From a bacterium (GTDB taxonomy: Bacteria > Patescibacteriota > Minisyncoccia > Phycocordibacterales > UBA918): a stretch of 52,266 nt of DNA. The stretch is taken from the NCBI GenBank assembly GCA_038145135.1, contig JAYQPD010000003.1, forward strand, positions 1 through 52,266. Direction: 5' to 3'. The position numbers and the translations under genes are program-made. A model generated the notes under the pieces. It was given only the letters and a program-made list of their open reading frames with translations, had not been told where the DNA came from and made no database searches. Each line of letters begins with the position of its first letter. Position 1 is the stretch's first letter. Positions 31,207 through 31,406 of this stretch are shown in pieces.

Positions 31207-31322
31207 TGTACCCCGTAGTGAGAGAGAAACAGCTCACTGGTAAGTGGAGAAGCTGAACAGTATATTTGAGCGCAATCAACGCGTTGATGCTAGGATCATT
31301 CGGAGCTCTACTACGGGGTGTA
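31207..31322 (-). repeat. 116-nt element bounded by 17-18-nt inverted repeats, directly upstream of the start of gene 29339..31195
   Basis: The arms are TGTACCCCGTAGTGAGAG (31207-31224) and CTCTACTACGGGGTGTA (31306-31322). Inside are GTGGAGAAG and a perfect 14-bp palindrome, ATCAACGCGTTGAT (31275-31288). It is related to 33087..33204. Confidence 0.7.
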
Positions 31323-31372
31323 CCCCGTAGTGAGAGACAAGTACTTCCCTATTCGGGGAGAAGTCGAAATTC
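31321..31372 (-). repeat. Partial third copy of the element: one arm plus the conserved internal motif
   Basis: TACCCCGTAGTGAGAGACAAG...GGGGAGAAGTCGAAAT. With the preceding arm it forms a tight hairpin, CTACTACGGGG-tgta-CCCCGTAGTGAG (31306..31336). Confidence 0.6.
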
Positions 31373-31373
31373 A

Positions 31374-31406
31374 GTATCTAACGGAAGCAAGGCCTCCGTT
31401 AGATAC
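31374..31406 (-). terminator. 12-bp hairpin 10 nt downstream of the stop of gene 31416..32243 (probable terminator)
   Basis: GTATCTAACGGA-agcaaggcc-TCCGTTAGATAC. The minus-strand tail TGAATTTCG is only moderately T-rich. Confidence 0.5.

Follow-up and report, generated by a model that had tools for sequence, protein, structure and literature searches.

Correia elements of Neisseria, also known as NEMIS or CREE, are units of ~100-150 nt with terminal inverted repeats and an A/T-rich target duplication; they lie near gene starts, their ends can form or rebuild promoter boxes, and they give long hairpins when transcribed. The tetranucleotide GTAG is typical of another group of short repeats, the REP sequences handled by RAYT Y1 transposases, and DDE transposition is classically recognized by a 4-bp duplication beside defined inverted-repeat ends.

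The Ssn family comprises stand-alone GIY-YIG nucleases specific for single-stranded DNA, whose genes are flanked by multicopy hairpin repeats termed NTS or SRM (Chenal et al. 2025, PMC11893778), and the NTS-ssnA-NTS layout was likened to an insertion sequence by its authors (PMC11893778). Neither target duplications nor Patescibacteria are reported in that work, whereas 4-bp duplications are the rule in the elements described here.

The present analysis concerns a 52,266-nt stretch of DNA from a member of the Patescibacteria (hereafter the window), in which two short non-coding elements bounded by inverted repeats lie directly upstream of two genes. They resemble Correia elements in being short non-coding units with an A/T-rich target duplication, proximity to gene starts, promoter-box ends and hairpins, but the duplication is 4 bp here as opposed to 2 bp (TA), the end sequences are unrelated, and the candidate autonomous parent is only ~300 bp long and encodes a GIY-YIG nuclease instead of a DDE transposase. 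With REP/REPIN sequences mobilized by RAYT they share the arrangement as ~100-nt inverted doublets, the hairpins, the intergenic location, the association with one small nuclease-type gene that the same repeats flank, and the GTAG tetranucleotide; REPINs, however, have no target-site duplication, the arms here are not palindromes, and the REPIN enzyme, a Y1 HUH transposase, is absent from two arm-rich genomes included in this study. The closest published parallel is Ssn, in that a stand-alone GIY-YIG protein of ~90-100 aa is encoded by a gene flanked by a repeat that is multicopy in the genome. Still, NTS/SRM repeats are self-contained hairpins of ~30 nt, whereas here the arms pair across the whole unit, and the flanking sequence is unrelated to the NTS consensus in PMC11893778. 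Integron attC sites are similar in form only (imperfect inverted repeats of ~60-140 nt with conserved ends, a variable centre and fixed unpaired bases); the present elements have no GTTRRRY core, integrase or cassette array, and do have target duplications. In full-text literature searches, neither mobile units with GIY-YIG as their only gene nor MITEs derived from them were found to be described for CPR bacteria.

Results

Anatomy of the elements

The window is part of a genome of 945,651 bp in 52 contigs, designated G000. The genes neighbouring the two complete elements, E1 and E2, are all on the minus strand, and the features of the locus are as follows.

32240..33076, minus strand: gene A, 278 aa, with a hydrophobic N-terminal segment and an FGE-sulfatase domain
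31416..32243, minus strand: gene B, 275 aa, a paralogue with an FGE-sulfatase domain
29339..31195, minus strand: gene C, 618 aa, with Big and dockerin domains
31211..31318, plus strand: E1, complete 108-nt non-coding element with GA (left) arm at 31211-31224 and AG (right) arm at 31306-31318
31207..31210, no strand: left TGTA duplication of E1, on the minus strand the first four bases of TACAAT
31319..31322, no strand: right TGTA duplication of E1, common to E1 and the adjoining solo arm E3
31323..31364, plus strand: E3, solo left-arm module consisting of an arm, a hairpin with a 5-bp stem and a GGGGAGAAG box
31367..31413, no strand: strong hairpin directly 3' of the gene B stop, with a perfect 15-bp stem (31374-31388 / 31392-31406)
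33091..33200, plus strand: E2, complete 110-nt non-coding element with left arm at 33091-33104 and right arm at 33188-33200
33087..33090, no strand: gene-side TATA duplication of E2, part of TATACT on the minus strand (33090-33085)
33201..33204, no strand: distal TATA duplication of E2, second copy of the direct repeat

Gene A has an additional in-frame ATG at 33082. Elsewhere in the window, positions 10272-26993 (minus strand) form one open frame of 5573 codons, and its neighbours are cohesin, dockerin, fibronectin-type, SpaA-pilin and sortase genes, which marks the window as a cell-surface protein island. A umuD-like (Peptidase_S24) and umuC-like (IMS family) gene pair at 36465-38176 (minus strand) is unusual cargo in a 0.95-Mb genome.

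The arms of E1 and E2 are asymmetric. In agreement with a sequence-only reading of this DNA, the left arm CCCCGTAGTGAGAG starts at 31211, 31323 and 33091, and the right arm CTCTACTACGGGG occupies 31306-31318 and 33188-33200. The 14-mer CCCCGTAGTGAGAG is present in exactly these three copies, all on the plus strand, and nowhere else in the 945,651 bp of G000; at two or fewer mismatches 0.39 matches would be expected in the window. The arm of E1 that faces gene C is the left one. While the arms were as described in that reading, its outer bounds were not, as the element proper extends from CCCC to GGGG and the flanking TGTA and TATA are 4-bp target-site duplications outside the arms. The closeness to the genes claimed there was correct: 11 nt separate the TGTA flank from the start codon of gene C (31195), and 10 nt separate the TATA flank from that of gene A (33076).

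E1 and E2 are of near-equal length and show only a loose likeness beyond the first 46 nt. In both, a GTGGAGAAG box is located 19 nt after the left arm, the version in E3 being GGGGAGAAG, and the hairpin beside the left arm keeps its position in E1, E2 and E3 with a different stem sequence in each. E3 is 64% identical to the corresponding part of E1. A right arm was sought for it, but neither a convincing arm nor a matching duplication was obtained, and its interpretation as a full element with a degenerate right arm was rejected for this reason. No ORF is present in E1, E2 or the further copy on contig 7 described below. A six-frame HMM search of the E1, E2 and E3 interiors gave no GIY-YIG remnant, so that these interiors were not regarded as decayed GIY-YIG genes. 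A consensus scan for sigma-70-like promoters detected none inside the elements and a single weak terminator-like hairpin inside E3, on which grounds an intrinsic promoter or terminator was likewise rejected, and an Rfam scan of 30900-33600 yielded nothing relevant, only chance-level matches elsewhere in the region.

Folded as RNA, E2 forms a single long hairpin (-44.5 kcal/mol, z -4.8). In E1, the right arm, the shared TGTA and the left arm of E3 form a tight hairpin (31306-31336) that outcompetes the long-range arm pairing of the element. The extra arm at 31323-31336 thus forms the hairpin with the E1 right arm that had been proposed, and the three mutually exclusive pairings derived from it are physically present in the foldings; their meaning as an attenuator did not hold, the arrangement being explained by E1 abutting an older solo arm with which it shares a 4-bp duplication. 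The stem of the adjacent hairpin at 31367-31413 (TCTAACGG / CCGTTAGA) resembles the arms of a second repeat subfamily of G000, described below, in reversed order.

The elements are absent from same-genus genomes

Two other species of the window's genus, G035 and G036, were available for comparison. In both of them the gene order hsp20, gene C, gene B, gene A is retained and the elements are absent. The distance from the gene B stop to the gene C start is 4-9 nt in G035 and G036 versus 220 nt in G000, and the 31367-31413 hairpin is missing from these relatives too. Upstream of gene A, both relatives show TATACT, 6 nt and the ATG with no element, whereas the window keeps TATACT and has E2 inserted directly upstream, with TATA on both sides. 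Removal in silico of E2 and one TATA leaves a spacer of 44 nt, compared with 36 and 77 nt in the relatives.

Filled and empty sites were compared by scripted joining of the flanks. At the contig-7 locus, G035 reads GGGTTATACTA where G000 reads GGGTTATA, the 63-nt element and TATACTA. The empty site in G035 is clean (GGGTTATACT) and thereby establishes that the element ends in CCCC and GGGG and that 4 bp are duplicated. A model with TACCCC...GGGGTA ends and a duplication of 2 bp (TA) would predict GGGTTACT as the empty site and was rejected, as G035 has GGGTTATACT, corresponding to a 4-bp TATA. The G035 assembly breaks (contigs 29 and 97; L045, L046) at the junction of genes B and C, which is the position of E1 and E3 in G000. 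No transposition event, excision product or within-population polymorphism was seen.

Further copies in G000

The G000 genome contains three complete copies, one variant and two solo arms. The contig-7 copy (36377-36439, 63 nt) has a TATA duplication and is inserted in the opposite orientation, the other arm facing the gene at ~30 nt from its start codon. A variant copy with a TGTA duplication is located near 22150-22270 on contig 13, and a degenerate solo arm on contig 32. Also on contig 7, a stretch of ~80 nt (36096-36176) directly 3' of a ribonucleotide-reductase-like gene shows 74-100% identity to several other places in G000, G035 and G036 and may represent another repeat or small RNA family.

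A family of mobile elements in Patescibacteria

One genome per prokaryote species was scanned for ACCCCGTAGT-N75-105-ACTACGGGGT. Fifteen records matched this pair of arms, 11 of which were Patescibacteria of several classes (Buchanan-, Lloyd-, Nealson-, Pacei- and Saccharibacteria). Three matches outside Patescibacteria were examined (Novosphingobium, Halomonas and Latescibacteria); they had no duplications and look like chance, and the family was confined to Patescibacteria in these searches. As the same termini recur in several classes of the phylum, a genome-specific repeat was rejected. In five of the matching Patescibacteria genomes CCCCGTAGT is present in 10-63 copies, versus 1-7 copies of the reversed control, and most copies are arranged in inverted pairs with a distance of 60-300 nt. 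The arm pair was detected in just four of 400 evenly sampled genomes of the phylum, and this rarity and patchy occurrence are consistent with horizontal spread. Among 164 other genomes of the family to which the window belongs, the 10-mer is no more frequent than expected by chance; with the elements also absent at the orthologous loci, a conserved leader was rejected.

The sequence-only reading had proposed a search for copies in the genome and its relatives and a check for target-site duplications. Copies were found in both orientations and at varied intergenic positions, and in G166, one of the arm-rich genomes, every copy is intergenic and both orientations occur. Duplications are present at E1 (TGTA), E2 (TATA) and the contig-7 copy (TATA). 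Outside G000, 79 distinct sites were compared in other genomes and in metagenomes; at 62 of them perfect 4-bp direct repeats border the CCCC...GGGG unit, whereas the next 4 bp outward, taken as a control, were repeated at none of the 79. Such outcomes are those that the sequence-only reading had set out in advance as speaking for a MITE and refuting a leader.

A Lloydbacteria genome carries, twice and at unrelated loci, a complete element followed by a shared 4 bp and a solo left arm. In G165, contig 7 (2203-2530, L161) has four identical 77-nt elements arranged head-to-tail with a shared CTTG between them. The recurrence of such abutting layouts (E1/E3, Lloydbacteria, G165) indicates that landing or duplication takes place preferentially at the border of a resident copy. 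With its 81-nt period the L161 array could be mistaken for a CRISPR-like repeat. In G324 (contig 8, 120591-120710; L086) family arms enclose what appears to be a complete tRNA gene, in place of nuclease or filler.

The termini of the family are CCCCGTAGT-GA... and ...TCT-ACTACGGGG. The GA/AG asymmetry, that is CCCCGTAGT-GA in the left arm and CCCCGTAGT-AG in the reverse complement of the right arm, is seen in 61 of 65 elements, and the paired arms accordingly contain fixed G.T and A/C mismatches at stem positions 10-11. The arms form 20-nt stems with 87% of cells paired. Positions 12-20 vary among subfamilies and yet remain complementary, nine pairs having changed on both sides, with an arm covariation of 0.269 versus 0.115 in shuffles and 0.035-0.095 in slid controls, although related copies inflate such scores. 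As transposon ends are expected to be complementary with or without a hairpin, this covariation does not constitute evidence for an RNA structure.

Target words and gene starts

A TATA duplication was recorded at five sites, namely those of E2, of the contig-7 copy and of three Lloydbacteria elements, and every one of them falls within TATACT. On the minus strand, the E2 site TATACT (33090-33085) is 8 nt upstream of the gene A ATG (33076), and the E1 site TACAAT (31210-31205) is 9 nt upstream of the gene C ATG (31195). Neither gene has a Shine-Dalgarno sequence. Throughout G000, 10-17% of the occurrences of TATACT, TATAAT and TACAAT have, 6-9 nt further on, an ATG that begins an ORF of at least 100 codons, as against 1-5% for control (permuted) hexamers. 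This suggests that a large share of G000 genes may be leaderless, and these sequence statistics, together with the two relatives, point to a probable promoter role for TATACT and TACAAT. The hexamer begins with the four duplicated bases (TAYA), so that the gene retains a complete hexamer on its side of the insertion and only the upstream (-35) region is replaced by an arm. Elsewhere in the family, most sites at which TTGA is duplicated read TTGAC(A/T), and those at which TATG is duplicated resemble start codons. Survival bias in very short intergenic regions may inflate this apparent preference for expression signals.

Longer units with the same ends encode a GIY-YIG protein

Two 305-nt units in G166 have the ends of the family, CATA/CAT flanks and an 85-aa GIY-YIG ORF inside, and their 20-nt arms are common to the 67-68-nt copies of the same genome. 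When metagenomes were scanned for arms separated by 265-295 nt, 60 loci were obtained, representing 34 unique units of 296-316 nt, 31 of which encode only a GIY-YIG protein of 83-98 aa. The units are inserted at many different places, each bordered by a duplication of its own, and the ORF may point either way with respect to the asymmetric arms. G168 contains intermediates of 240 and 399 nt in which GIY-YIG remnants are decaying. The proteins match PF01541 (Pfam) with 52.7-59.7 bits, or 53.5-60.2 bits by hmmscan, and are single-domain, with no other domain; the only solved relative found by sequence is the UPF0213 protein BH0048 (PDB 1zg2), and an NCBIfam search with them gave no specific or named family. 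Arm-rich genomes have ~5-11 small GIY-YIG genes each, with one or two long UvrC-like matches per genome excluded.

No GIY-YIG unit with the exact arms of E1 and E2 was found in G000. On contig 33 of this genome, between pheS and pheT, lies a GIY-YIG unit that represents a sister subfamily; its arms are CCCGTTAGAGAT, which differ from the reverse complement of the E2 right arm (CCCGTAGTAGAGAT) by a 2-nt indel only; its 88-aa GIY-YIG gene lies within perfect inverted repeats TTTAGCCCGTTAGAGAT / ATCTCTAACGGGCTAAA (7536-7811). Short non-coding copies of the sister subfamily, recognizable by CCCGTTAGAA/G arms, number at least 13 and are scattered in G000. Many of these copies are directly followed by ATGAA, which resembles a start codon. 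A second small GIY-YIG gene is located at the end of contig 45 (4653-4888), and its first codons, AACTACGCGGTATAC, resemble the element right arm with its flank, ACTACGGGGTATAC, a resemblance that could be a coincidence.

Discussion

We consider it highly probable that E1, E2 and the contig-7 copy belong, as non-autonomous MITE-like elements, to an inverted-repeat-bounded mobile family that extends across Patescibacteria, and that E3 is the remnant of an older copy. They display the features expected of a MITE, namely short non-coding units with terminal inverted repeats, duplications and empty sites, dispersed copies and a longer coding element with the same ends. An insertion more than once of such an element was the second choice of the sequence-only reading, and it is this choice that the duplications, the empty sites and the multicopy family bear out. 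The mobile-element account leaves the conserved GTGGAGAAG box and the copy-variable stem next to it unexplained.

The full-length members are units of ~300 bp with a single gene, that of the 83-98-aa single-domain GIY-YIG nuclease, and from the association of gene and arms we infer that this nuclease mobilizes its own unit as well as the short copies in trans. It would probably do so by recognizing the arm hairpin or cruciform, as Ssn nucleases recognize hairpins in single-stranded DNA. Insertion produces the 4-bp target-site duplication. The copies in G000 landed in the TAYA of -10-like hexamers before genes, twice in TATACT and once in TACAAT. With the hexamer rebuilt and a leaderless layout, the insertions were probably tolerated and neutral, not regulatory; a secondary effect on the expression of the neighbouring genes is conceivable. 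We know of no biochemical precedent for a GIY-YIG nuclease that acts as a transposase with a 4-bp duplication, and some other enzyme supplied in trans is conceivable.

The alternative that survives best is a MITE moved by a conventional (DDE or Y1) transposase, the GIY-YIG gene being either passenger cargo or an independent homing gene. A 4-bp duplication at defined inverted-repeat ends is what such an enzyme would leave, the arms contain GTAG, and genes with a Y1_Tnp domain are present in G000 and G168. On the other hand, 31 of the 34 unique ~300-nt units hold the GIY-YIG ORF alone and do so at many distinct duplicated sites, and no arm pair 0.4-3 kb apart around a transposase-sized ORF was detected in G166 or G168. 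Furthermore, G165 and G166, with 38-46 arm copies and ~10 small GIY-YIG genes each, gave no match to the Y1 transposase (PF01797), and a RAYT/Y1 enzyme as the mobilizer was rejected on this basis. We therefore regard a conventional transposase as unlikely, though it deserves to be kept in mind.

Much less probable is an inverton, in which surface-protein genes would be switched on and off as a site-specific recombinase inverts the segment enclosed by the arms. The location of inverted repeats around ~90 nt of DNA just before genes for secreted or surface proteins would suit such a switch, and inversion between the arms could yield the two orientations of the GIY-YIG ORF relative to the asymmetric arms; yet no recombinase was found among those window ORFs that were searched against Pfam, no sigma-70-like promoter is predicted within the elements, the segment is wholly missing in the relatives, and the repeats are fully explained as transposon ends with duplications, tens of copies of which exist elsewhere.

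The leader switch or attenuator preferred by the sequence-only reading, a cis-regulatory RNA in which arm pairing sequesters the translation starts of genes A and C and the extra arm offers an alternative pairing, drew on the arms lying 10-11 nt from the start codons, the long E2 hairpin (z -4.8), the competition of the E1/E3 hairpin with long-range pairing and the hairpin next to the left arm that keeps its position while changing its stem, but is scarcely credible, because the elements are missing from the orthologous leaders of both same-genus genomes, the contig-7 copy has the reverse orientation and stands ~30 nt away from the start codon of its gene, family copies have both orientations, varied intergenic positions and duplications, there is no Rfam match, the arm covariation is equally expected of transposon ends, and the arms would lie outside the mRNA if the rebuilt -10 hexamers drive leaderless transcripts.

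Returning to the mobile-element interpretation, a more far-reaching form of it can be put forward tentatively, as a possibility that we hold with well under even confidence. The elements of the window might be relics of what is perhaps the smallest class of autonomous DNA transposon, a unit of ~300 bp with a GIY-YIG nuclease of ~88 aa that would recognize a hairpin with the G.T and A/C mismatches, each subfamily targeting a core expression signal that is handed back by the duplication. The target words under this proposal would be TATACT (-10) in G000 and Lloydbacteria, TTGAC(A/T) (-35-like) in G166 and TATG (start codon) in AT-rich lineages. To our knowledge, a ~300-bp unit is far smaller than any known insertion sequence.

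What appeared to be an RNA switch at this locus is the scar of a mobile element, one of a MITE family linked to a unit of ~300 bp in which a GIY-YIG nuclease is the sole gene product. Repeats of this kind can mislead gene callers, promoter predictions and CPR genome assemblies. Nucleases of the Ssn type gain a concrete candidate role in DNA mobility. The findings also suggest a route by which selfish DNA may survive in streamlined genomes, namely landing on promoter boxes or start codons and rebuilding them through the duplication, and, if the more far-reaching proposal is true, this signal-restoring duplication would account for the persistence of such a parasite in 1-Mb genomes that have hardly any DNA to spare.
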